Part shown: positions 49,774 through 62,192 of the stretch, piece by piece
Layout: each line of letters begins with the position of its first letter
Numbering within the stretch: position 1 is the first letter of the stretch
From: Trueperaceae bacterium
GTDB taxonomy: Bacteria > Deinococcota > Deinococci > Deinococcales > Trueperaceae
DNA length: 64,000 nt
Reading direction: 5' to 3'
Assembly: GCA_965215565.1 (NCBI GenBank)
Contig: CBDCDZ010000004.1
Location: forward strand, 1,088,001 to 1,152,000
Translations under genes and position numbers: made by a program
Notes under the pieces: model-generated
Database searches by the model: none
What the model saw: the letters and a program-made list of their open reading frames with translations, nothing else
What the model was told of the DNA's origin: nothing

Positions 49774-50115
49774 CCTCGAGTGCCCACAGGTTCACCCGCT
49801 TGTGTATCGCAAGGACGCTCGAGCCCGTAATAGGCTCGAGCGCTCTGCTGTGGGGCGGAATCCTCGAGTCCATTTCTCAAAATCAGCTATCCAGACCTCT
49901 TCCCAAAACGTATAAACGGTTTTAGTAGCCGCCTACCCCTCTGCGAACTTCCTTACACCTCTTCCAACATGTGAAATTTGTAAGTTCTTTGTAAGAGTCC
50001 AGCGGCTAAACTCTTTTCTAGCAAGGGAGACACACTCCTGCGCTAACGAATTCCCACCGGAACAGCCGTTTTCATACATACTCTTTATCGGATGTTCCCA
50101 GAAAAGGAGCGCACC

Positions 50116-50472
50116 ATGCGCAACAATAAGAACAAAGGCTTCACCCTCATCGAACTCCTCATCGTCATCGCCATCATCGGCATCCTAGCAGCGGTTCTCA
50201 TCCCGAACTTGCTCTCGGCTCGCAACCGTGCAAATGACAGTGCCACTCAAGCCTTCCTCCGCAACTGCATCACGGCTGTCGAAGCTAATCGCGACGCAGT
50301 TAAGCAAACTCTTCCAGCTGATGGCGATTGCGCGACACTCATGGGTGTAACGCTGCCCGCTGCTGTAACTTCTGCAACGTACGATACTGACACCACAACC
50401 GACACTTATACAGCTGAAGCTACCTCTGTTACGACAACGAAGTTCACCTACAACGGTGTCGAAATTCAGTAA
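50116..50472 (+). CDS. Type IV pilin (major-pilin-like)
   Basis: AAGGAG RBS; KG/FTLIELLIVIAIIGILAA prepilin cleavage motif; two Cys. Confidence 0.93.
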   Translation: MRNNKNKGFTLIELLIVIAIIGILAAVLIPNLLSARNRANDSATQAFLRNCITAVEANRDAVKQTLPADGDCATLMGVTLPAAVTSATYDTDTTTDTYTAEATSVTTTKFTYNGVEIQ

Positions 50473-50582: not shown

Positions 50583-50960
50583 ATGAAGAAAGGAGCAGGT
50601 CAAGCTTTTACGTTAGTTGAGTTACTTATCGTTATTGCTATTATCGGCGCTTTAGCAGCAGTTATGGTTCCAAATCTTCTACAAGCTCGCCATGCCGCTC
50701 AAGACCGTGCCACGCAAGCTTACGTTTACCAAGTGGTGCAAGGCGTTGAGGCAAAACGAGATTCAGTTGGACAGAGAATACCCTCAGTAGCAGCCTGTAA
50801 TGTATTTGCAGTTTTGATTACTGACCCTAAAAGCAGTGTTAAGCGATGCAAATATGTACCTGATGCTTCTACAGAAACTTACAAGATCACAGCAGAGAGC
50901 TTTTCAGGTAAGATATTCCAGTTTAACGGTGAAGAAATCGTTATTGCACCAAGCTACTAA
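50583..50960 (+). CDS. Second type IV pilin
   Basis: QA/FTLVELLIVIAIIG; two Cys; AT-rich codons. Confidence 0.9.
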   Translation: MKKGAGQAFTLVELLIVIAIIGALAAVMVPNLLQARHAAQDRATQAYVYQVVQGVEAKRDSVGQRIPSVAACNVFAVLITDPKSSVKRCKYVPDASTETYKITAESFSGKIFQFNGEEIVIAPSY

Positions 50961-50985
50961 GCACCTCATCACCCTGTAAATTCCA

Positions 50986-51048
50986 GGCGGCTTCTTTAGC
51001 CGTCTTTTTTCTTATCTTTAGGTCATCTCGCTGTATCATAAACCCGTG
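50986..51048 (+). repeat. TA-array repeat copy 1 (3' half diverged)
   Basis: GGCGGCTTCTTTAGCCGTCTTTTTT, then TATCAT-6nt-GTG in place of TATCCT-6nt-ATG. Confidence 0.75.
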
Positions 51049-51062
51049 CGCATTTTCTTACG

Positions 51063-51332
51063 CTAAACCCTTTTGTAAACCTCTCGCCTATGCCCAACAA
51101 AGAATAGAGTCAACACTCTTTGCTCGTCATTGAGTTTGTAGACTGCGCGGTAGCTCCCTACGCGGAGTTTATAAAAACCTTTGAGGTCGGCGCTGAGCGC
51201 TTCGGGTTTGACGTTGCTCAGGTTCTCTGAAAGCTATCTAACTTTATTAAGGATGCGCTGAGCAACAGTGCGGTCTAGCGAAGCGAGGTCTTTTTGAGCT
51301 TCAGGTCGAAACGCAACCCCGTAGGGCGTCAC
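51063..51332 (-). pseudogene. relE: RelE/ParE-family toxin with in-frame TAG at codon 33
   Basis: Manual translation: MTPYGVAFRPEAQKDLASLDRTVAQRILNKVR*LSENL...FYKLRVGSYRAVY...VGHRREVYKRV; GTG overlaps antitoxin TGA. Confidence 0.85.
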
Positions 51333-51526
51333 CAGGAGAGCCCCAACTCCTCAGCGACGTCTTCGGCGGGAACGCTGGGTTCATTCGAGGTTTGAAGTCG
51401 CGCTTTCAGTGCGTCGCGGAGTTCGAGACCTTCGTCGGGGTCGCCTACAAGGTCCTCGAGCGCTTCCTCCACAGATTCTCGGACGAGCGCTTTGAACTGT
51501 TCGGGGGTAAAGTCTGAAACCTTCAT
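51329..51526 (-). CDS. Acidic antitoxin upstream of RelE-like toxin
   Basis: MKVSDFTPEQFKALV...DPDEGLELR...EDVAEELGLSW; TATAAT 7 nt upstream of ATG. Confidence 0.8.
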   Translation of the reverse strand: MKVSDFTPEQFKALVRESVEEALEDLVGDPDEGLELRDALKARLQTSNEPSVPAEDVAEELGLSW

Positions 51527-51537
51527 CAGCACCATTA

Positions 51538-51648
51538 TAGCAGGTATCATCTGGTTTGAGCCAATCTCACTAGGTAAAACGTCGCGTAGCACGCACTTTA
51601 GGAGATGATATCTGCGTGATTCAAGCTCAGTACTTCTGATAACCGCTA
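51538..51648 (+). mobile_element. MITE-like element (111 bp)
   Basis: TAGCAGGTATCATCTGG ... AACCGCTA; same length as and colinear with 31146-31256. Confidence 0.75.
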
Positions 51649-51668
51649 TATAACACCCTATTACTCCA

Positions 51669-51763
51669 GGCGGCTTCTTTAGCCGTCTTTTTCTTTGGCT
51701 TTTAGCCGCCGCGGGGCGTGCTATCCTAAGCGTATGAGCACCTTTGAGCGAACCGCGGTAGAG
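51669..51763 (+). repeat. TA-array repeat copy 2
   Basis: GGCGGCTTCTTTAGCCGTCTTTTTCTTTGGCTTTTAGCCGCC...GTGCTATCCTAAGCGTATGAGCACCTTTGAGCGAA. Confidence 0.92.
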
Positions 51764-51786
51764 CTTGAAAATGTTAGACTCCAGAG

Positions 51787-52044
51787 ATGAAGGTCAGGCA
51801 GTTTTCGATGAGGCTCTATCTGCAAAAGGCGTTACAGCTTGCCGAGTACGAGCGTGACGAAGATGGCGTGGTCGTGGCGCGTGTGCCTGGCGCAGACGGG
51901 TTTTACGCGCAGGGCGAGAGCGTGGAAGAGGCACGTTCGGAGCTTGCGGATGTTGTTGAAGGTAATGTGCTGCTCGCGTTGCAGCTCGGTTTAGAGGTTC
52001 CAAAACTTCCAGATATTGAATTCTTGGAACAAGACGTTGCCTAA
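51787..52044 (+). CDS. hicB: HicB-family antitoxin
   Basis: VARVPGADGFYAQGESVEEARSELADV HicB-like pattern. Confidence 0.85.
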   Translation: MKVRQFSMRLYLQKALQLAEYERDEDGVVVARVPGADGFYAQGESVEEARSELADVVEGNVLLALQLGLEVPKLPDIEFLEQDVA

Positions 52045-52258
52045 GCTGACGCCTCTTAAAAGTCGAGAGGTTATCCGAAAACTTCACAAGCTGGGCTTCG
52101 AGGGACCGTTTCCCGGTGGGCGACACTCTCGGATGGTGAAGCGCGAAACGGGACAAATCGTACCGATTCCGATTCACAGTAAAGAGGTCGGCGTGGGGCT
52201 GATTCGTGAGATTATCCGGCAGGTTGGTATCAGCCGCGACGAATGGATAGCGTTGTAA
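52037..52258 (+). CDS. hicA: HicA-family toxin
   Basis: REVIRKLHKLGF, GGRH, VPIPIH..EVGVGLIREIIRQVG; TTG start overlapping hicB end. Confidence 0.88.
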   Translation: MPKLTPLKSREVIRKLHKLGFEGPFPGGRHSRMVKRETGQIVPIPIHSKEVGVGLIREIIRQVGISRDEWIAL

Positions 52259-52264
52259 ATTCCG

Positions 52265-52354
52265 GGCGGCTTCTTTAGCCGTCTTTTTCTTTGGCTTTTA
52301 GCCGCCACGGGGTGTGCTATCCTAAGCGTATGAGCGCGCCCGAGCGAAGTGCGT
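52265..52354 (+). repeat. TA-array repeat copy 3
   Basis: Near-identical core to copy 2; TATCCT 52318, ATG 52330. Confidence 0.92.
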
Positions 52355-52360
52355 TATCTA

Positions 52361-52741
52361 TTACCAGAGCCGCTTAATCGCGTAGGCGTCTAATGTCGCG
52401 TCTTTGCTTAGCAGCGGCAGTTTTTCATGAATACATTGCGCGACGAGGGTGCGGTCAAAGGGGTCACGGTGGTGAAAAGGGAGCGATGAGAGGATGTCTA
52501 GGTGTTCAGGCGTGATGGGCAGAAGTTCGAAGCCCAAACTCAAGGCTTCACCAACAAGCGCCGAAATGGGCGTGTCAAGCTCGAGCTTGCCGACAGAGAC
52601 CTTGATGGAAATTTCCCACGGACTGACGATGCTCAGCACAGGTTGATTCTCACCCTCTAAAATCTCAGCGGCGTACTCGCTCAGCCTAGCGTCATCCGTG
52701 CTGTACCAGAGGAAAGTATGGGTGTCGAGGATAAACCTCAT
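52361..52741 (-). CDS. vapC: VapC / PIN-domain toxin
   Basis: ILDTHTFLW, SIVSPWEI, HRDPFDR..VAQ, LSKD. Confidence 0.92.
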   Translation of the reverse strand: MRFILDTHTFLWYSTDDARLSEYAAEILEGENQPVLSIVSPWEISIKVSVGKLELDTPISALVGEALSLGFELLPITPEHLDILSSLPFHHRDPFDRTLVAQCIHEKLPLLSKDATLDAYAIKRLW

Positions 52742-52974
52742 TCGGGTAGGTAATTCTCAAAGCCTTCGGGGATGTCCTTGAAGTCTTCAGCGATCCGAAT
52801 TTTGCCTTTCGCAAAGCCTAGCCCGCCCCGTTTGTGTTTCTCTAACCGCTTGCGCTCAAGCGCTGTCTTGTGAAGCAAGAACTCTGCAAAGTCCTGTACT
52901 TCTCGCTGTTGCGGCTCTGGTAACTGGGGCAAGAGGTCATTGACCGCCTCGATGCTTGTTTTTTGATCAGCCAT
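52738..52974 (-). CDS. DUF2281-like (VapB-type) antitoxin
   Basis: LPEPQQREVQDFAEFL...GFAKGKIRIAEDF; ATGA overlap with vapC; TAAACT 6 nt upstream of ATG. Confidence 0.82.
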   Translation of the reverse strand: MADQKTSIEAVNDLLPQLPEPQQREVQDFAEFLLHKTALERKRLEKHKRGGLGFAKGKIRIAEDFKDIPEGFENYLPE

Positions 52975-53004
52975 AGGAGAAGTTTACTCCATTTTGCTTG
53001 TTTG

Positions 53005-53097
53005 GGCGGCTTTTCGCTGTCTTTTTCTTTGGCTTTCAGCCGCCATTAGGCGTGCTATCCTAAGCGTATGAGCACCTTTGAGCGAATCGCGGTAGAG
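53005..53097 (+). repeat. TA-array repeat copy 4 (ATG is the start of the downstream antitoxin)
   Basis: GGCGGCTTTTCGCTGTCTTTTT...GTGCTATCCTAAGCGTATG at 53068. Confidence 0.9.
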
Positions 53098-53274
53098 CCT
53101 GAATACATTACGGACCATGAAGGGCGCAAGACCAAGGTCGTTTTGCCTATCGAGGTATTTGAGGAACTGCTAGAAGACCTACATGACCTCTCGGTTGTCG
53201 CAGAGCGGCGTGATGAGCCTCTTCTTGCTTGGGAAGATGTGAAGCGTGACTTAGAGGAAGATGGCGCGTTATAG
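53068..53274 (+). CDS. RelB/Phd-like antitoxin
   Basis: YITDHEGRKTKVVLPIEVFEELLEDLHDL...WEDVKRDL; overlaps RelE gene. Confidence 0.82.
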   Translation: MSTFERIAVEPEYITDHEGRKTKVVLPIEVFEELLEDLHDLSVVAERRDEPLLAWEDVKRDLEEDGAL

Positions 53275-53527
53275 GCTGCTTGCTCGTTCGTCTTTTCGAA
53301 AAGACCTCAAGAGGTTATCCAAAGACGTTGCCGCTCGGGTAGCGACTAAAGTTGAGCGTTTAGCCGAGGATCCTTTCCCGGCGGATAGCAAGAAATTGCA
53401 GGGTCATAAAGGGCTTTACCGTGTGCGTGTGGGCGCGTACCGAGTCGTATATGAGGTAGATCAAGAGGTCAAAATTATTGCGCTAACGTATGCGCGTCAC
53501 CGGAAGGACGTTTACCGGAACCTCTAA
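53261..53527 (+). CDS. relE: RelE/ParE-family toxin
   Basis: KDLKRL, KKLQG, YRVRVGAYRVVY, HRKDVYR. Confidence 0.9.
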   Translation: MARYRLLARSSFRKDLKRLSKDVAARVATKVERLAEDPFPADSKKLQGHKGLYRVRVGAYRVVYEVDQEVKIIALTYARHRKDVYRNL

Positions 53528-53546
53528 ACTCCCTTTGTGACTTCTG

Positions 53547-53637
53547 GGCGGCTTCTTTGGTTGCCTTTTCCTCTGCTTTTAGCCGCTACTAGGCGTGCTA
53601 TCCTAAGCGTATGAGTACGTTTGAGCGAACTGTAGTA
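53547..53637 (+). repeat. TA-array repeat copy 5
   Basis: GGCGGCTTCTTTGGTTGCCTTTT...GTGCTATCCTAAGCGTATGAGTACGTTTGAGCGAA. Confidence 0.88.
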
Positions 53638-53673
53638 AAGTCAGGGTGCAAACAGGCTTAAAGAGGGTGTTGC

Positions 53674-54003
53674 TTGGACATTCATAGCCCCGACGTTATT
53701 TTAGAACGTATCAAAGCTCAGGCGGCAGCAGACAATCTCGTTTTAACGCTCCACGCGGCGGAAGAGATGCAAGACGAGGCGGTGTTGTTAGATGAGGTCT
53801 TAGTGGCTCTAGCTGACGGCAGTGTGCTCGAAAACTACCCTACCTTTTATAAAGGTCCGTGCTGCTTAGTCTGTGGACGCGGCAGTCAGGGGCGTTATCT
53901 GCACATCGTCTGCTCGACTTCGCGCCCAAAACTCTTTATCATTACGGTGTATGAGCCGAAACCGCCGAAGTGGGTAACGCCTACCGAAAGAGGTCAGAAA
54001 TGA
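53674..54003 (+). CDS. DUF4258-family putative toxin
   Basis: TLHAAEEM, ENYP...PCCLVCG, LHIVC, IITVYEP...W. Confidence 0.82.
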   Translation: MDIHSPDVILERIKAQAAADNLVLTLHAAEEMQDEAVLLDEVLVALADGSVLENYPTFYKGPCCLVCGRGSQGRYLHIVCSTSRPKLFIITVYEPKPPKWVTPTERGQK

Positions 54004-54233
54004 ACTGCCGAATGGAATGCCCTGGAAGCTACGAACCCAAAACGATCCTCTTTCGCGGCAAGCAGAAGGACGAAACGGTTATGATTGATGACGTACCCGC
54101 TTTGGTTTGTCAGGTGTGCGGCGATACGGTTTTAGAACCTGATGTGGTGCGGCATATCGAAGAACTGTTGCACTCTGAGGAAGAGCCGAGCAAGCAGTAT
54201 CCCGTTTTTACATTTGCACAAAAAGCTGCTTAG
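54000..54233 (+). CDS. YgiT-type zinc-finger protein (MqsA-N-like antitoxin)
   Basis: MNCRMEC...DVPALVCQVCGD; ATGA overlap with DUF4258 gene. Confidence 0.82.
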   Translation: MNCRMECPGSYEPKTILFRGKQKDETVMIDDVPALVCQVCGDTVLEPDVVRHIEELLHSEEEPSKQYPVFTFAQKAA

Positions 54234-54257
54234 CACCTCATCATCCCGTGAATTTCG

Positions 54258-54351
54258 GACGGCTTCTTTAGCCGTCTTTTTCCTTGGCTTTTAGCCGCCA
54301 CTAGGCGTGCTATCCTAAGCGTGTGAGCACGCCCAAGCGAAGTGCGGTAGA
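54258..54351 (+). repeat. TA-array repeat copy 6
   Basis: GACGGCTTCTTTAGCCGTCTTTTT...GTGCTATCCTAAGCGTGTGAGCAC. Confidence 0.92.
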
Positions 54352-54385
54352 ATCGGAATATAAACAGGCTTAAAGAGGTTGTTGC

Positions 54386-54601
54386 TTGGATTAGCAGGTA
54401 TCATCTGGTCAGAGTGTACGAAGTTTTGCGAAGCAACACTCTCACTTTGTGAAACGCTGTTTCACTGCGTGAAAACTTCGTAATTAGCACGTAACTTTAA
54501 GGGATGAAATCCCGCTAGTCCTACGGACAGAGACCTGCGTTCAACTGTCTCAGGGTGTCGTGAAACTGCTAGATGTTTATAGTCCTGACGTCATCTTAGA
54601 C
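54386..54601 (+). pseudogene. 5' relic of a second DUF4258-like gene interrupted by MITE
   Basis: Removing MITE and one GAT gives LDVYSPDVILD vs LDIHSPDVILE at 53674; upstream AAACAGGCTTAAAGAGG shared. Confidence 0.65.
54392..54571 (+). mobile_element. MITE-like element (180 bp) with 3-bp target duplication GAT
   Basis: gat|TAGCAGGTATCATCTGG ... TGAAACTGCTA|gat. Confidence 0.82.
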
Positions 54602-54610
54602 CAAAGCAAG

Positions 54611-54640
54611 AGCCCCACACTTGGCGGGGCTTCTCTTTTT
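54611..54640. terminator. Terminator between array and tRNA operon
   Basis: AGCCCC...GGGGCT followed by TCTCTTTTT. Confidence 0.6.
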
Positions 54641-54662: not shown

Positions 54663-54737
54663 TGGTAGGCGCGGGCAGGATTGAACTGCCGACCTCCACA
54701 GTGTCAGTGTGGCGCTCTCCCACTGAGCTACGCGCCT
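54663..54737 (-). tRNA. tRNA-Val (GAC)
   Basis: Cloverleaf AGGCGCG acceptor, CCACA-CTGACAC-TGTGG anticodon arm, GTTCAA T-loop, CCA end. Confidence 0.95.
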
Positions 54738-54808
54738 ATACAAATAACTGGTTCTAAATTGACTTATGAGGTATCACCTTTTTGACGAGATGATACCTCC
54801 AAGCTTTT

Positions 54809-54883
<75 letters not shown>

Positions 54884-55247: not shown

Positions 55248-55949
55248 CTACTCGTCGTGAATGATGCGGGTTATGCGCCCGACGATCTCATCGACGCGGT
55301 CGATCTGGATGACGCTAGGTGTGCCGTTGGTGTGGGTGACGTTGCCGGACTGGAGGAAGCGTCCGAACTGATCGTCCTTTAGGACCTTGCAGACGTAGCC
55401 GTCATCGCGCAAACGCGCGACTACAGCGCTATTCGCGTGCCCTTTGTCGTTGCGGTTCACGACGACGGTGTCGCCGTGGTAGATGGGGCTCTTGCCCGCC
55501 TCCATCGAGTCGCCACGGATGCGAAACGCGACTAAATCTTTTCCCCGCGCGAAGCCCTCCTCTACCCAAATAACCTCGTCTAGGACGACTTCGTGCCGGT
55601 CTGGACCTGCGCCGACCCACCCTGCAACACTGACTCTGACCTGCGTAGGGCGCAGCGTATCCGCGCCTGGGGCATCTGGCTCTACGAGGTAGACAAGTTC
55701 ATGTGTAGGCACCTCCAGCGCCTCTGCAAGCTGCATCAGAAAGGCTAGGCTAGGTACCTTCCAGGCGTGTGGCGCGGACTCTGGACGCCCTCTTACAAGC
55801 TCGTACAGCGTACTCTTTCCTAGCCCGAAGTGTCTAGCGAACTGCGTTATGTTCTCAATCCCCAATTCTCGCATCCGAGTCGTTATGAGATGGTTGAGTG
55901 GTCCCCTAAGTTTTTTGACCGCTGTCTTTTTTGCTTGTAGTCTTTCCAT
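55248..55949 (-). CDS. CI/LexA-like repressor (XRE HTH + S24 peptidase)
   Basis: HTH ITQFARHFGLGKSTLYELVRG; VGAG cleavage site, GDSM Ser, VCK Lys; TACACT 7 nt upstream of ATG. Confidence 0.88.
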   Translation of the reverse strand: MERLQAKKTAVKKLRGPLNHLITTRMRELGIENITQFARHFGLGKSTLYELVRGRPESAPHAWKVPSLAFLMQLAEALEVPTHELVYLVEPDAPGADTLRPTQVRVSVAGWVGAGPDRHEVVLDEVIWVEEGFARGKDLVAFRIRGDSMEAGKSPIYHGDTVVVNRNDKGHANSAVVARLRDDGYVCKVLKDDQFGRFLQSGNVTHTNGTPSVIQIDRVDEIVGRITRIIHDE

Positions 55950-55973
55950 GAAGGCAAGTGTAAAGAAAATCAC

Positions 55974-56002
55974 TTGACTTGTCCAGAGGTTTGGAATAAG
56001 CT
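55974..56002 (+). promoter_or_regulatory. Promoter of Cro-like gene
   Basis: TTGACT-17nt-TAAGCT; TCCA...TGGA inverted motif in the spacer. Confidence 0.6.
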
Positions 56003-56031
56003 TTGACTACGTTTTGGAAAAGGAGGCGTTA

Positions 56032-56262
56032 GTGTTACACAAGAGGATTCAAAAAAGGAGCGAGGAATTAGGGCTAAACCAGAGCGATTTAGCCCGTCGC
56101 TCAGGGCTCTCGACGTCGTATATAGGCTATATCTGGCATGGTGTACACGGAAGGAACATGAGTTATCAGACCATGTTGAAGTTAAAGAAAGCGTTAAGAG
56201 TGCCCCTCTCTTTTTTCTCTGAAGATGACGTAGTTTTGGAAAAACGGCATGTCGAGGTTTAG
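56032..56262 (+). CDS. Cro-like XRE HTH protein
   Basis: AGGAGG RBS + GTG; LNQSDLARRSGLSTSYIGYI. Confidence 0.85.
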   Translation: MLHKRIQKRSEELGLNQSDLARRSGLSTSYIGYIWHGVHGRNMSYQTMLKLKKALRVPLSFFSEDDVVLEKRHVEV

Positions 56263-57065: not shown

Positions 57066-60000
57066 ATGGCGAACCCCTCAAAATCCGCTCCAACACAATT
57101 TGCCCACCTGCACCAGCACACCGCCTATAGCCTCTTAGACGGCGCAGCCCGCATCAAAGACCTGATGAAGTGGGTTGTAGAGGTCTCGCCCGAGAACCCG
57201 GTCTTGGCAATGACCGATCACGGCAACATGCACGGCGCGGTGGAGTTTTACAAGGCGGCGGAGAAAGAGGGCGTCAAGCCGATCTTAGGCTTCGAGGCGT
57301 ACGTGAGCGCGGGCTCGCGCTTCGAGAAGAAAAAGCCCTCGTCGAAGCTGGACGGTGGCTATTTTCACCTCACCCTGTTGGCAAAAAACTTCACGGGCTA
57401 CCAGAACCTCTGCAAGCTGAACTCGAGGGGGTGGTTGGAAGGTTTCTACATGAAACCCCGCGTGGACCACGAGCTTCTGCGCGAATACTCCGAGGGCGTC
57501 ATCGCTATGTCGGGCTGCTTGGGGGCGCAGATTCCTAGAAACCTCTTGGATTTAGGCGAAGCGGCAGGCGATGAGGTCTTGCAGAAGTATTTAGACATCT
57601 ACGGCGAGAACTTTTTTATCGAGTTGCAGAACCACGTGCCGGAAAAAGCCAGTGATATGGACGCTTCACTTCGCGACCTCGCCGAGCAGCAGACGCGCCT
57701 CAACCCGATGCTCAAAAGTTTGGCGGACAAGTACGGGCTGGGCATGGTGGCGACGAACGACGGGCACTACGTTAAGAAAGAGGACGCCAAAGCGCACGAG
57801 GCCCTCTTAGCCATTCAGACCAAAACGACGCTGTCCGATCCCGGACGCTTCAAGTTTCCCTGCGACGAGTTCTACGTCAAGACGCCCGAAGAGATGGCGA
57901 GGGCGATTCCTGAAGACGAGTATCCGAGCGCCTTGGCGAACAGCATGAGCGTCGCGGACCTTTGCGACGTGACGCTGCCCATCGGCTCCAAGCGCGTCTA
58001 CCAGATGCCCGAGCTGCCGATTCCGGCGGGGCGGACGCTCGCCGAGCAGCTCCGCGTACAGACGTATGAGGGTCTCATCGAGCGCTACGAAGAGGTTACC
58101 GAAGAGCTTTACCGCGATTACCTCGCATGTTCTGGCGAAAGCGTACCCAGTGAGGCGGAAGCGGTCTACCTCAAGCTGGCACAAGTCGGGGAAAGAGGTC
58201 GGACGCCCAAAGAAGAGGGGCAGAACTTCGACACGTTCGCGTATCCCTGTTTGAAAGCGTTTAGAGAACAGGGAACGGCGAGCGAAGAGGCGCTAGGGAT
58301 TCTCGAGCGGGCCGAATTCGAGTTAGGTGTGATTATCGCGATGGGCTTTCCAGATTACTTCCTCATCGTCGCGGACTTCATCAACTGGGCGAAGGACAAC
58401 GGCATTGCGGTGGGACCGGGGCGCGGCTCGGGCGCGGGCTCCATCGTCGCCTTTGCGACGCGCATCACCGACATCGACCCTTTAGAGTTCGACCTCTTGT
58501 TCGAGCGCTTTTTGAACCCCGACAGGGTCTCCATGCCCGACTTCGACGTGGACTTTTCCGACACGCGGCGCATGGAGGTGGTGGACTACGTGCGGCGCAA
58601 ATACGGCGAGGAGAAAGTGGCGCAGATTGCCACCTTTGGGACGATGGCGTCGAAAGCGGCGATTCGGGACGCGGCGCGAGTGTTAGAAGCACCTTACGCC
58701 GACGCCGACGCGGTCTCCAAACTCATCCCCGTCGTCTTCGGGCGCTCCACACCTATAGCGCGGGCGATGGATGAGGTCACCGAAATCAAGCAGCTTTATG
58801 ATGGCGGCGCAAAGGAGTTTGTAGACGTCGCGATGAGCTTGGAGGGTTTGACGCGCCACGCCTCGGTGCACGCGGCGGGCGTCATCATCGCCCGCGAGCC
58901 CGTCCAAGAACTCGCGCCCGTGTTTCGTAGCGGCGACGGTCCCATCGTCTGCCAGTACGACATGGGCTCGGTGGAGGACTTGGGCTTCATCAAGATGGAT
59001 TTTCTGGGCTTGCGCACCCTCTCCTTTATCGAGGCGGCGATTCGCATCGTCAAGGAGTCGCGCGGCGTCGAACTCGACGTGGACGCCTTTCCCAAAGATG
59101 ACGAGAAGACGTTTGCGCTGCTCTCGAGGGGTGAAGCCGCCGGCGTCTTCCAGTTCGAGTCGCCCGGCATGGTCGATACGCTCAAGAAGCTCAAGCCGCG
59201 CCGCGTCCAAGACCTCATCGCGGTCTCGGCGCTCTACCGCCCCGGTCCGATGGAGAACATCCCCACCTACATCCGGCGGCACCACGGCGCGGACAACCCG
59301 GACTTTTCCGAGGACCCCTACACTGACTTCCCCGAGTCGCGGCAGTATTTGGAGTCCATCTTAGAGGAGACCTACGGCATCCCTGTTTACCAAGAACAGA
59401 TTATGCAGATTGCGCAGGCAGTCGCGGGCTACTCCCTGGGCGAAGCCGACCTCTTGCGCAGGGCGATGGGCAAGAAAAAAGTCGAGGAGATGGTCAAGCA
59501 GCGCCAGATTTTTTTAGACGGGGCGAAAAAGAAAGGTATTTCTAAAGGCGAAGCAAGTCAAATCTTTGATTTGCTAGAGAAATTTGCCAATTACGGCTTT
59601 AACAAGTGCGTCGTAGGCGAGACGCTCATCCCGGACGCACAGACGGGGCAGCTTCACACAGCAGCCGACCTCTTCGTAAGACAGCATCACCCCGACGTGG
59701 TGAGCGTTCAAGAGGACTTCAGTTTGACGCAGAGCAAAACCGCACAGGTCATGCAAAACGGTGTCAAGCCCGTTTACACCCTCACCACCTCTTTGGGTAA
59801 AGAGATCACTGCGACGGGCAACCACCCCTTTAGAACGTTGGACGGTTGGACCAATTTAGAAGATTTGCGCCCCGGCGAGCACGTCGCGTCGCCCGCGCAC
59901 CTGCTTGTACAAGGACAAGAGGTCTGGGACGCGCACGAACTCATTACGCTGGGCTGGACGCTCGCGGAGGGCAATACCTGCCACCCGTGCGGCGTGTATC

Positions 60001-62192
60001 TCTACAGCAACAATGAGGTTGTAGTGGAGGACATGGTTAGGGCGGCGGCGCAGTTCGAGAACACCGCGCCTACCGTCAAGAAGCGTCTCGAACGAAACCA
60101 CACCTTCGACGTCTATTTGGGGACCGGCAAGCGCGGTTCAGCCAGCGGCGGACGTTCAGGAGCGCGGCTGTGGCTCGAGGCACTTGGCGTCGTTGGGCAA
60201 GGGGCAGCGGAAAAGCACTTCCCTAAAGAGGTCTTCCGCCTCACGAACGACAACTTAGCCCTCTTGCTCGGACGCTACTGGTCAGGGGACGGGTTCGTTT
60301 TTGGACAAGGCAACGCGACTCCTTACGCCGCGCCCTCTTCAAAAGAACTCGCCAAAGAGCTACAACACCTCCTGCTCCGCTTCGGCGTCGTCAGCCGTTT
60401 AGCGAAAAAGACGTTCGCGTATAAGGAGGGCCGAACGGGCTTCACCGTTCACGTGTTGGGACGGCGAAGTGTCGAGAGGTTTTTAGAACATATCGCGTCG
60501 CATATTGTTGGAAAAGACGAACAGCTCGCATGTCTGCGTGAGTATTTAGCGCACACCCCCGCCGAGCGCGAAAGCGTGGACACCCTGCCGCCCGAAGTCA
60601 AACGTTGGGTTAAAGAAGCGAAGGAGCAGAGCGGTCTGACCTGGCGCGAGATTGAAGCGCAGAGTGGCGTGTGCGTTAAAGAGCTATACGGCGATGCGAA
60701 GGCGCACAAGAAGGGCTTTCGGCGCAGCACGGTTCGTAAACTCGCCGAATTTTTCGGCTCTGAGAGGCTGCGCCAAGCGTGTAGCGAAGACCTCTTCTGG
60801 GAGCGCGTCGAACGTACCGAACCTGCGGGCGAAGTGATGACGTACGACTTAGAAGTCGAGCACACCCACAACTTCGTCGCCAACGACCTCTTAATGCACA
60901 ACTCGCACTCGGCTGCTTACGGCGCACTCTCCTACCAAACCGCCTACCTAAAAGCGCACTACCCGTTAGAATTCGTCGCCGCCCTCCTGACCGTCGAGCG
61001 CGGCAACTCGGACAAAGTCGCGGAGTACATCACCGACGCGCGCTATCTGGGGCTCGAGGTCTTGCCCCCCGACGTCAACGAGTCACGGAGCGACTTCACG
61101 CCCGTGGACGAGGTCATCCGCTTCGGGCTCTACGGCATCAAAAATGTGGGCGACGCCGCTGTCGAACACATCTTGGACGAGCGCGACAAGGGCGGGAAGT
61201 TTAGAGACCTCTACGACTTTTGCAAACGGGTGGACTCGTCGCTAGTGAATAAGCGGGCGCTCGAGCACCTGGTCAAAGCGGGCGCGTTCGACGAACTCGG
61301 CAGCCGGAGCGACCTCTTAGCGAACCTAGAGCCCGCCATGAAGTGGGGCGCGGCGCAGCGCGAGCAGGCGGCGGCGGGGCAGTTCGGGCTCTTCGGCGCG
61401 GAGGAGACGAAGCCGCCTGCGCCTAACAAGGTGGCGGAGCATTCGAAGCTAGAGCTGCTCCGCTTCGAGAAAGAAGCGCTAGGGCTCTACATCTCGGACC
61501 ACCCGATGAACTCCTACCCCGGTCTGACCGACGCCGCGAACTGCACGGTGGCCAAAATCGACGCCTGCTACAAAGAGCTGATGAAACACGCCAGGGGCGA
61601 CCCCCGCCAGCGCATCGCCCTCGCGGGCATTCTACAAAACGTCGTCAAAAAGCCCACCAAGAAGGGCACGATGATGGCGCGCTTCGAAATCGCCGACGAG
61701 ACGGGCAGCCGCGAAGTCGTCGCTTTTAGCCGCACGTACGAAGAGATCGCTGACAAGCTGGGGGAGGACGCGCCCGTGGTGCTCGTGGTGGAGGTCTCGC
61801 AAGACCGGGACGGGGAGTCTATTCGCATCGTCGCGGACAGGCTGATTCGCTGGGAGGAGCGCGGCGACTTGCCCGAAGTTGCGATTGCGAGTTTTGACCT
61901 CGGTGACGTAAATGAGGCGCTCCTTACGGACTTCCGCTCGCACGTAGACGAGTTCGCGGGCATCACCCCGCTGCGCCTCAAGGTCCGCTCGCCGCGCGGC
62001 GTGGCACTCTACGCCACCGAAAATATCAGCATCGACAAGGCGAAGCTCAAAGATTTAGAGCGCACCTGCCCCTGGCTCAAAACAGCGGTGACGATCAACC
62101 GCGAGAGCCTCTTGCGCGCGCCCGTGAACCGCTACGGAAAACCCAAACAAGATGACGGGGGCGGCTTTAAGTCGGTGGAGGTGCCCTTTTAA
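57066..62192 (+). CDS. dnaE: DNA polymerase III alpha subunit containing one intein
   Basis: HLHQHTAYSLLDG PHP, GPGRGSGAGS, FERFLNPDRVSMPDFDVDF, KMDFLGLRTL, FANYGFNK/SHS. Confidence 0.97.
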   Translation: MANPSKSAPTQFAHLHQHTAYSLLDGAARIKDLMKWVVEVSPENPVLAMTDHGNMHGAVEFYKAAEKEGVKPILGFEAYVSAGSRFEKKKPSSKLDGGYFHLTLLAKNFTGYQNLCKLNSRGWLEGFYMKPRVDHELLREYSEGVIAMSGCLGAQIPRNLLDLGEAAGDEVLQKYLDIYGENFFIELQNHVPEKASDMDASLRDLAEQQTRLNPMLKSLADKYGLGMVATNDGHYVKKEDAKAHEALLAIQTKTTLSDPGRFKFPCDEFYVKTPEEMARAIPEDEYPSALANSMSVADLCDVTLPIGSKRVYQMPELPIPAGRTLAEQLRVQTYEGLIERYEEVTEELYRDYLACSGESVPSEAEAVYLKLAQVGERGRTPKEEGQNFDTFAYPCLKAFREQGTASEEALGILERAEFELGVIIAMGFPDYFLIVADFINWAKDNGIAVGPGRGSGAGSIVAFATRITDIDPLEFDLLFERFLNPDRVSMPDFDVDFSDTRRMEVVDYVRRKYGEEKVAQIATFGTMASKAAIRDAARVLEAPYADADAVSKLIPVVFGRSTPIARAMDEVTEIKQLYDGGAKEFVDVAMSLEGLTRHASVHAAGVIIAREPVQELAPVFRSGDGPIVCQYDMGSVEDLGFIKMDFLGLRTLSFIEAAIRIVKESRGVELDVDAFPKDDEKTFALLSRGEAAGVFQFESPGMVDTLKKLKPRRVQDLIAVSALYRPGPMENIPTYIRRHHGADNPDFSEDPYTDFPESRQYLESILEETYGIPVYQEQIMQIAQAVAGYSLGEADLLRRAMGKKKVEEMVKQRQIFLDGAKKKGISKGEASQIFDLLEKFANYGFNKCVVGETLIPDAQTGQLHTAADLFVRQHHPDVVSVQEDFSLTQSKTAQVMQNGVKPVYTLTTSLGKEITATGNHPFRTLDGWTNLEDLRPGEHVASPAHLLVQGQEVWDAHELITLGWTLAEGNTCHPCGVYLYSNNEVVVEDMVRAAAQFENTAPTVKKRLERNHTFDVYLGTGKRGSASGGRSGARLWLEALGVVGQGAAEKHFPKEVFRLTNDNLALLLGRYWSGDGFVFGQGNATPYAAPSSKELAKELQHLLLRFGVVSRLAKKTFAYKEGRTGFTVHVLGRRSVERFLEHIASHIVGKDEQLACLREYLAHTPAERESVDTLPPEVKRWVKEAKEQSGLTWREIEAQSGVCVKELYGDAKAHKKGFRRSTVRKLAEFFGSERLRQACSEDLFWERVERTEPAGEVMTYDLEVEHTHNFVANDLLMHNSHSAAYGALSYQTAYLKAHYPLEFVAALLTVERGNSDKVAEYITDARYLGLEVLPPDVNESRSDFTPVDEVIRFGLYGIKNVGDAAVEHILDERDKGGKFRDLYDFCKRVDSSLVNKRALEHLVKAGAFDELGSRSDLLANLEPAMKWGAAQREQAAAGQFGLFGAEETKPPAPNKVAEHSKLELLRFEKEALGLYISDHPMNSYPGLTDAANCTVAKIDACYKELMKHARGDPRQRIALAGILQNVVKKPTKKGTMMARFEIADETGSREVVAFSRTYEEIADKLGEDAPVVLVVEVSQDRDGESIRIVADRLIRWEERGDLPEVAIASFDLGDVNEALLTDFRSHVDEFAGITPLRLKVRSPRGVALYATENISIDKAKLKDLERTCPWLKTAVTINRESLLRAPVNRYGKPKQDDGGGFKSVEVPF
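59607..60902 (+). mobile_element. Intein (432 aa) with LAGLIDADG-like endonuclease
   Basis: FNK|CVVGET...TGNHPF...YDLEVEHTHNFVANDLLMHN|SHS; LGWTLAEG and LGRYWSGDG motifs. Confidence 0.93.

Follow-up and report, generated by a model that had tools for sequence, protein, structure and literature searches.

Toxin-antitoxin modules spaced by copied host DNA behind a type IV pilin gene of Trueperaceae: a probable hot spot for capture

We studied a stretch of 64,000 nucleotides from a Trueperaceae bacterium (NCBI GenBank assembly GCA_965215565.1, contig CBDCDZ010000004.1, positions 1,088,001 to 1,152,000; this whole stretch is called the window), in which five predicted toxin-antitoxin (TA) gene pairs alternate with direct repeats behind two type IV pilin genes. 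As far as sequence comparison can establish it, the repeats are copies of host junction DNA that are specific to the locus and to the lineage, and both the sets and the orders of the modules differ between relatives. We consider it probable (roughly 60%) that the site 3' of the pilin operon is a hot spot for addictive two-gene modules, which would have arisen by iterated insertion with long target duplication and subsequent homologous reshuffling, without a dedicated recombinase.

The genome that contains the window (G000; 4.49 Mb in four contigs, with C4 as the main contig) was compared with two congeners (G001 and G002; the three form genus g1), with G005 and G054 of genus g4, and with G046 and G018 of genus g17, all of them Trueperaceae. 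The array and its immediate surroundings in the window consist of the following features, in which MITE stands for miniature inverted-repeat transposable element and 3'UTR for 3' untranslated region.

50116..50472, forward strand: major type IV pilin of the PilA4 family (Pfam PF18682, E 2e-23), with a conserved N-terminus and a hypervariable head domain
50583..50960, forward strand: second PilA4-family pilin (PF18682, E 5e-17), whose 3' end, together with the 3'UTR, anchors the array; G001 and G002 have it in the same place
50951..51013, forward strand: r1, the partial first repeat copy, with pilin stop region, 3'UTR and intrinsic terminator (stem 50985-51005, T run)
51063..51332, reverse strand: RelE/ParE toxin gene of module 1, with an in-frame TAG at 51234-51236; PF05016 matches the C-terminal piece
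51329..51526, reverse strand: antitoxin-like gene of module 1 (65 aa), whose stop overlaps the RelE start
51536-51650, no strand: MITE-like element flanked by TA dinucleotides, inserted at the module 1 -10 box, with 229 genome matches of at least 70 nt
51665..51769, forward strand: r2, with terminator 51668-51688, -10 box 51722, ATG 51734 and antitoxin 5' stub
51787..52258, forward strand: HicB-like (UPF0150) and HicA genes, with their own leaderless -10 box
52254..52353, forward strand: r3, with terminator, -10 box 52318, ATG 52330 and stub
52361..52974, reverse strand: DUF2281 (VapB-like) and PIN/VapC genes, with their own leaderless -10 box abutting r4
53004..53105, forward strand: r4, with a terminator loop 2 nt shorter and -10 box 53056, leading straight into an intact relB-like gene
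53068..53527, forward strand: RelB-like antitoxin and RelE genes; the first codons of the antitoxin are the stub carried by the other repeats
53535..53679, forward strand: r5, with terminator, -10 box 53599, ATG 53611 and stub; 133 nt in common with r6
53674..54233, forward strand: DUF4258 and YgiT-type zinc finger genes, a predicted TA pair (PF14076, TIGR03831)
54223..54391, forward strand: r6, the last copy, whose first 35 nt match the stop region and 3'UTR of the pilin gene and which ends in a remnant of the DUF4258 start
54392-54571, no strand: second MITE-like element with the same type of ends; 97 genome matches of at least 70 nt
54663..54883, reverse strand: tRNA-Val(GAC) and tRNA-Cys genes, array flank only

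The six co-oriented repeats start at 50986, 51669, 52265, 53005, 53547 and 54258, exactly as an earlier note made from the letters of the window had reported. That note counted six copies of a repeat of about 95 bp. Five full copies of about 90 nt (80-91% alike) bear this out, but the copy at 50986 aligns with the others over 24-35 nt only (3'UTR and terminator) and is therefore partial. Pairwise homology of the five full copies in the window extends 70-133 nt rightward, so that the repeat has no fixed length, and in the last copy of G001 the homology runs up to 194 nt into relB. All six copies contain a hairpin and T run resembling an intrinsic terminator. The five full copies further contain a -10 box and, six bases downstream, a start codon that is in frame with the first codons of a relB-like gene that is intact only after r4; a different -10-like box lies downstream of r1, at 51034. 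At its left end, r6 aligns over 35 nt with the stop region and 3'UTR of the pilin gene; to the right, homology stops at varying points. Together these two features establish, at the level of sequence, that the repeat is host junction DNA (pilin 3' end, terminator, promoter and start of the next gene) copied to variable length.

Leaderless -10 boxes, either their own or supplied by the repeat, precede four of the five modules, the DUF4258 module having none; according to the accessible part of PMC12340547, leaderless -10 expression is common and important in this phylum. Fold predictions allow an alternative 5'-arm pairing in some full copies. A riboswitch or attenuator reading was rejected, since the second arm is absent from the first copies and from G002. 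We also observed that a DUF433 gene (L011:12573-12610, at the G001 array) and the relB-like gene of the window (53068-53105) have their first 36 nt in common, and the stub may therefore derive from a DUF433 start fused to relB.

The two genes of a pair are coupled in all five modules (they overlap or abut), and nine of the ten genes have a TA-type Pfam or NCBIfam match, some of these below the curated cut-off. All five modules are thus predicted type II TA pairs. The description of one two-gene module per interval in the earlier note holds for five pairs, with the reservation that the first RelE is broken by an in-frame TAG and that its 65-aa antitoxin-like partner found no match in a Pfam search; the other four pairs are intact. 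Neighbours of the 65-aa protein in the Atlas are unnamed proteins of 67-69 aa, and the RelB-like family appears at 0.86, which can be taken as a lead only. The HicB-like and HicA proteins have counterparts of 80-88% identity at the pilin arrays of G005 and G054, and the DUF4258 and YgiT proteins have counterparts of 84-92% identity in G001 and G002. None of the ten array proteins matched in a PADLOC search for phage defence.

The repeat is confined to this locus. An nhmmer search of the whole 4.49-Mb genome retrieved the six array copies only (E 4e-29 to 6e-15; next match E 1.5), and BLAST found the window repeat in 2 of the 128 family genomes, the G002 copies being detected only within their locus. 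The repeat is thus not a scattered repetitive extragenic palindromic (REP) sequence or MITE, an identity that was also rejected for the g4 and g17 repeats, which are likewise confined to their arrays. Rfam assigned the repeat to no family and recognised only tRNA.

Integron-type and Xer-type sites were sought by scoring 16 repeat copies with motifs for the attC boxes (RYYYAAC and GTTRRRY) and the XerD arm. None of the copies had both attC boxes, and the four single-box matches lie at +104 to +113, beyond the conserved core; the absence of attC boxes and of an integrase gene, both remarked upon in the earlier note, is therefore upheld. Folds of the six window copies share no long attC-type hairpin and contain a short terminator stem or varying alternatives. 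The XerD-arm pattern, which is crude and may not fit the dif site of this lineage, matched 0 of 16 copies. The integron integrase model TIGR02249 (IntI) found no protein above cut-off in four genomes, the best G000 protein scoring 108 of the required 265 bits. Furthermore, a fixed crossover point is contradicted by ragged homology ends and by exchange inside relB. By these measures the repeat is not an attC site, and it is probably not a dif site. A Y1 or REP-associated tyrosine transposase (RAYT) was rejected as the driver, with no match in G001 and G002 and one weak domain within a 1322-aa frame in G000.

A cryptic site-specific system might still move the modules, if the terminator hairpin were recognised by its structure, as attC is by IntI, and the recombinase came from another locus, such as that of the Xer-like protein next to RES/Xre pairs. 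The layout is indeed integron-like with a distinct first site, module orientation is always kept, and a Xer-like tyrosine recombinase of 305 aa, linked to TA pairs, is common to G000, G001, G002 and G005 (82-92% identical, in non-syntenic places). In G000 its gene lies beside RES/Xre TA pairs identified by family matches (L111:13649-14563 and L111:4263-7445; C4 at about 380-391 kb), and similar RES/Xre-type pairs, judged by sequence, lie near it in L112, L113, L114 and L115; protein and pairs possibly form a small mobile recombinase-TA unit. TA operons flanked by res-like palindromes are described for Photorhabdus in the part of PMC13617665 available to us. However, no repeat copy lies near any recombinase gene: the six tyrosine recombinase matches of G000 are at 370-442 kb of the main contig, about 700 kb from the array, or on a small contig, and its resolvase is on another contig than the array. 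The lack of attC boxes and Xer-like arms, the ragged ends with a crossover inside relB, the unrelated repeats in genera that have the same Xer-like protein, and the purA coding sequence within the G018 repeat also argue against this explanation, which we regard as quite improbable.

The array was then compared across genus g1. The same pilin pair is followed in G001 by seven repeat copies and six modules (RelB-RelE; addiction-module antitoxin-ParE; DUF2281-MNT-HEPN; MntA-HepT; DUF433-DUF5615-YgiT; RelB-like-PIN), and in G002 by three diverged copies and the modules RelB-like with a deleted PIN gene, DUF4258-YgiT and DUF2281-MazF. Content and order, which the earlier note expected to vary between relatives, both differ. 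In 14 comparisons of module pairs shared by relatives, all between species, the order was reversed ten times and the orientation never changed. The distal flank of the array is different in each of the three g1 genomes. In the window, the array does lie between pilin and tRNA genes, as the earlier note had it, with two PilA4-family pilins upstream and tRNA-Val and tRNA-Cys downstream, but the tRNA genes are incidental and not part of a conserved setting, since they lie 820 kb from the array in G001 and on another contig in G002. A tRNA-targeted island was rejected because the tRNA pair is unlinked to the array in both congeners. Two side observations concern these loci: dprA lies about 1.5 kb past the array end in G001 only (L011:15633-16742), and a GIY-YIG nuclease gene with REP-like repeats lies upstream of the G002 pilins (L012:13651-14514).

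Sequence variation within g1 carries traces of recombination. The G002 terminators are 97% alike among themselves and 53-57% alike to the G000 and G001 copies, even next to homologous modules; this points to homogenisation of the repeats within a lineage. The four RelB-like genes represent all four combinations of start type and toxin partner. In their alignment, 13 sites linked to array position lie at columns 25-136, whereas 67 of the 68 sites linked to the toxin partner lie at column 151 or beyond, and four sites fit neither pattern. This split places an exchange point inside the coding stub, and the RelB antitoxins are, on this alignment, chimeric with a crossover within the stub.

Arrays of the same kind occur in two other genera. 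Eight TA modules lie behind the pilin in G005 and about six in G054, spaced by a different repeat with 8 and 6 matches, respectively, all within the arrays and none in g1. In G046 and G018, genes of BrnTA, DUF433-DUF5615, PIN, MazF and DUF559 types lie between copies of a third, locus-confined repeat. The repeats of the three genera are no more alike than shuffled sequences (for the best comparison, 24 of 300 shuffles scored as high). Repeat R1 of G018 is identical at 222 of 254 positions to the region before and into purA (TIGR00184 above cut-off), including its first 11 codons, and by this alignment it is a long duplication of a core-gene target; among 43 loci, only that of G018 has purA beside the pilin.

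These features recall restriction-modification systems, for which single inserts with long target duplication have been published (Furuta et al. 2010, PMC2853133, seen in part). The corresponding hallmark is present here: flanking direct repeats longer than 30 bp that are variable and genome-unique (70-133 nt in the window and about 250 nt in G018). The repeat copies host target DNA, namely pilin 3'UTR and terminator in g1 and the purA promoter plus first 11 codons in G018. No mobility gene lies in or beside the inserts, and the modules measure 0.45-0.65 kb, the published kind of insert being shorter than 20 kb. Restriction or modification cargo is absent, the arrays holding TA families only.

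Duplication without any special insertion would lead to almost identical end products and is difficult to tell apart from iterated insertion. Here, a terminator-promoter-TA unit would be duplicated in tandem by unequal crossing-over and one coding part later replaced, leaving stubs. Several remnants look as this process would leave them: r6 still has the start of DUF4258 that also follows r5, the last repeat copy of G001 continues into a broken relB, a hepT 3' remnant lies behind a second pilin-like gene in G005, and DUF559 and Uma2 genes are duplicated in other pilin loci. However, tandem duplication requires two illegitimate joints for every module, the window contains no TA pair duplicated intact in tandem, and the purA 5' stub is more simply explained as target duplication. 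We judge it unlikely.

Under the preferred reading of iterated capture, a new TA operon with its own leaderless -10 box would join the junction, which would result in a long and variable target duplication. The likely route would be illegitimate joining of foreign DNA to a junction fragment, then single-crossover integration of the RecA type, probably during natural transformation. Once several direct repeats are present, homologous recombination would delete, re-insert, swap and homogenise modules; the products of this process are seen in the arrays compared here. Such reshuffling would change module order and keep orientation, and crossovers inside the antitoxin stub would give chimeric antitoxins. 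The terminators may insulate each module from pilin read-through. The site may be favoured because the pilin head is often exchanged, and adjacent addictive modules would resist replacement by alleles without them; the major pilin can be aligned with the congeners over its first 124-143 nt only (92-95% identity).

With regard to machinery, ComEC and DprA genes were found in five of five genomes and RecA in four of five. G000 has two full-length recA genes (C4:292030 and 3841091), as do G002 and G005. Two mechanistic proposals of the earlier note can be judged against these results. Its RecA-type exchange between repeats during natural transformation fits the chimeric RelB and the ragged ends, and the ComEC, DprA and RecA genes that it would need are present. 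Its dedicated TA cassette platform agrees with the varying TA sets and fails in that the repeat is duplicated host terminator and promoter DNA, unrelated in other genera, rather than a dedicated recombination site.

A family-wide survey covered 61 pilin loci, drawn from the 66 family genomes (of 128) in which a pilin was matched; very short contigs were outside the set. TA genes occurred within 5 kb downstream of the pilin at 11 of 61 loci (37 genes in 293 kb), which represent 6 of 26 genera. This enrichment is biased upward because the TA queries had themselves been taken from regions downstream of pilins, although same-genus queries were excluded. Upstream, TA genes occurred at 4 of 61 loci (4 genes in 190 kb), and the G000 background was 28 of 898 5-kb bins with a TA match. 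In other families of the order, 4 of 18 pilin loci had TA matches downstream, and a repeat-spaced TA array was seen at none of those inspected.

Ordinary clustering of TA genes in a variable islet, with the repeats as by-products that no longer mediate exchange, could also be considered. The part of PMC13617665 at hand describes chromosomal TA systems as mostly addictive, clustered in small chromosomal spots and losing the toxin first, which matches the broken RelE of module 1. One TA pair in a Thermus pilin islet has been published (PMC5529391, seen in part), and some family loci hold TA genes without repeats. Against this stand the one repeat per module in the three g1 genomes, save a deletion in G002, and the spacing of most modules by repeats in four genomes from genera g4 and g17, together with within-genome homogenisation, chimeric antitoxins and conflicting orders. 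We regard simple clustering as very improbable.

Several observations weigh against capture by iterated long target duplication. An empty allele with a single junction copy was not found, as all three g1 genomes carry arrays, so that the target duplication is deduced from repeat content only. The first copies differ from the internal ones in their promoter half in all three g1 genomes, which simple duplication of the first site would not give. Shared proteins are 64-92% identical and the comparisons are between species, so that the differing orders could be independent acquisitions. Fifty of the 61 family loci had no TA match (some of these may not be orthologous pilins), and the TA-bearing loci of G142, G143, G055 and G020 have no such repeat between their modules. 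The organisms are uncultured and only presumed to be competent, and recA was not found in the fragmented G018 genome. Finally, neither a deletion nor a circle at the repeat was demonstrated in the contigs of four sequencing runs, in which a single joint falls within repeats; it connects 51686 with 53020, has 22 nt on its short side and is ambiguous.

In the same four runs, the array is tiled at 100% by contigs of X1, which may be the source sample; these contigs break at the repeats and do not bridge them. X3 contigs contain relatives that are about 85-90% alike, with hicA followed by another neighbour, which is a weak hint. Metagenome pattern scans with 41-nt and 23-nt repeat motifs gave 0 matches each and thus no arrays at strain level, and no RNA run was listed as containing the sequence.

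A broader proposal would take the three Trueperaceae arrays as instances of one capture pathway, a sequence-independent 'integron without integrase' of competent bacteria in general. DNA imported by pili would be captured at the pilin terminator-promoter junction by programmed long target duplication, lineages would evolve their own att-like repeat, and addictive modules would ride on pilin allele exchange as a gene drive. We put this forward tentatively and regard it as rather doubtful.

Further observations were made at other pilin loci and in the neighbourhood of the array. In G010 the pilin terminator region occurs twice, about 570 bp apart, with no recognised gene between (L064:8388-9058), which may reflect one insertion event of this type. 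Behind the pilins of another family of the order, Uma2/DUF820-type stubs and copies flank a coiled-coil gene or a DUF433-DUF5615 pair (L089:3151-4273 and L097:3247-4991). Draft contigs break within about 1.2 kb of the pilin match in L034, L039, L040, L041, L044, L052 and L054, as expected if the locus varies within populations. The earlier note left out the two MITE-like elements inside the array (51536-51650 and 54392-54571), which occur genome-wide, are both flanked by TA dinucleotides and belong to two related families that may be IS630-like, judged by this TA target. Adjoining the tRNA pair, an S24/HTH repressor gene is divergent from a small HTH gene (window 55248-56262), resembling an immunity switch of a phage or an integrative and conjugative element without integrase. 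Window 57066-62192 holds dnaE with an intein bearing a LAGLIDADG domain. CTCGAG is the most over-represented palindromic hexamer in G000 (6790 main-contig sites, observed/expected 1.34; for example, window 49774-49870), unlike many other palindromes, for which avoidance is strong; the g4 and G002 repeats also contain it at high density, and the pattern is presumably HIP1-like.

How TA pairs enter and cluster on chromosomes without a mobile element is described as poorly characterised in PMC13617665, which also disputes that chromosomal TA systems stabilise neighbouring genes over long periods; this speaks against the stabilisation of the pilin locus that the earlier note had suggested. Long target duplication has no established mechanism; PMC2853133 ascribes it to some property of restriction systems, DNA breakage for example. 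The same footprint is found here around TA modules of the RNase type that include no restriction enzyme; it recurs at one defined site in three genera with unrelated repeats, which makes it a small clonable substrate for tests of mechanism. The array links pilin diversification to the spread of addictive genes. Integron-like arrays can thus arise without attC or IntI and would escape integron finders. A literature search that covered subscription journals thinly and excluded supplementary TA locus tables found no account of TA arrays spaced by repeats behind pilin genes, in agreement with the earlier note; the accessible parts of PMC13385816 and PMC10440598 contain nothing on them.

Several known systems resemble the array in part. 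Sedentary chromosomal integrons and clusters of attC sites lacking integron integrases (CALINs) hold many self-promoted TA cassettes, often in opposite orientation, whose order varies while orientation is kept. The array shares with them the repeat-module-repeat layout, the self-promoted TA cassettes and this pattern of order and orientation. In contrast, it has neither attC R boxes nor IntI, its boundaries are ragged, and its repeats are host terminator, promoter or gene-start DNA that is unrelated between genera. The pdif (XerC/D) modules of Acinetobacter plasmids and the rAID arrays of Bacteroidales likewise consist of small modules, TA pairs included, between short sites, with the recombinase outside the module. 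The array differs from these in its chromosomal pilin anchor and long direct repeats, and the crude XerD-arm pattern detected no 28-bp Xer-type site. In orphan cassette arrays of polymorphic toxins (cdiA-CT, mafB-CT, rhs), a conserved gene stub heads the cassettes and permits homologous exchange and chimeras. Stub-headed cassettes and chimeric products are found here as well, and homologous exchange is probable, but most modules are complete self-promoted operons, and the stub would be a by-product rather than part of a silent store for one expressed gene.

The pilA-comZ islet of Thermus, likewise a variable pilin locus, has one TA pair, and DUF820 nucleases are close by (PMC5529391); in the parts available of that paper and of PMC13617665, no repeat-delimited multi-TA array at a pilin gene is described for Thermus or for the Photorhabdus TA clusters. 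The closest match is with the restriction-modification inserts, which, according to the accessible part of PMC2853133, combine addictive genes with direct repeats longer than 30 bp that are variable and genome-unique, carry no other mobile genes, occur mostly in naturally competent species and may also show gene fusion at the junction. The array differs from those inserts in that no empty allele was found and that its cargo consists of type II TA operons and includes no restriction nuclease that could make a break. Furthermore, its target is the terminator-promoter junction behind a pilin gene, where the event would have been iterated two to eight times at one site before the array was reshuffled.

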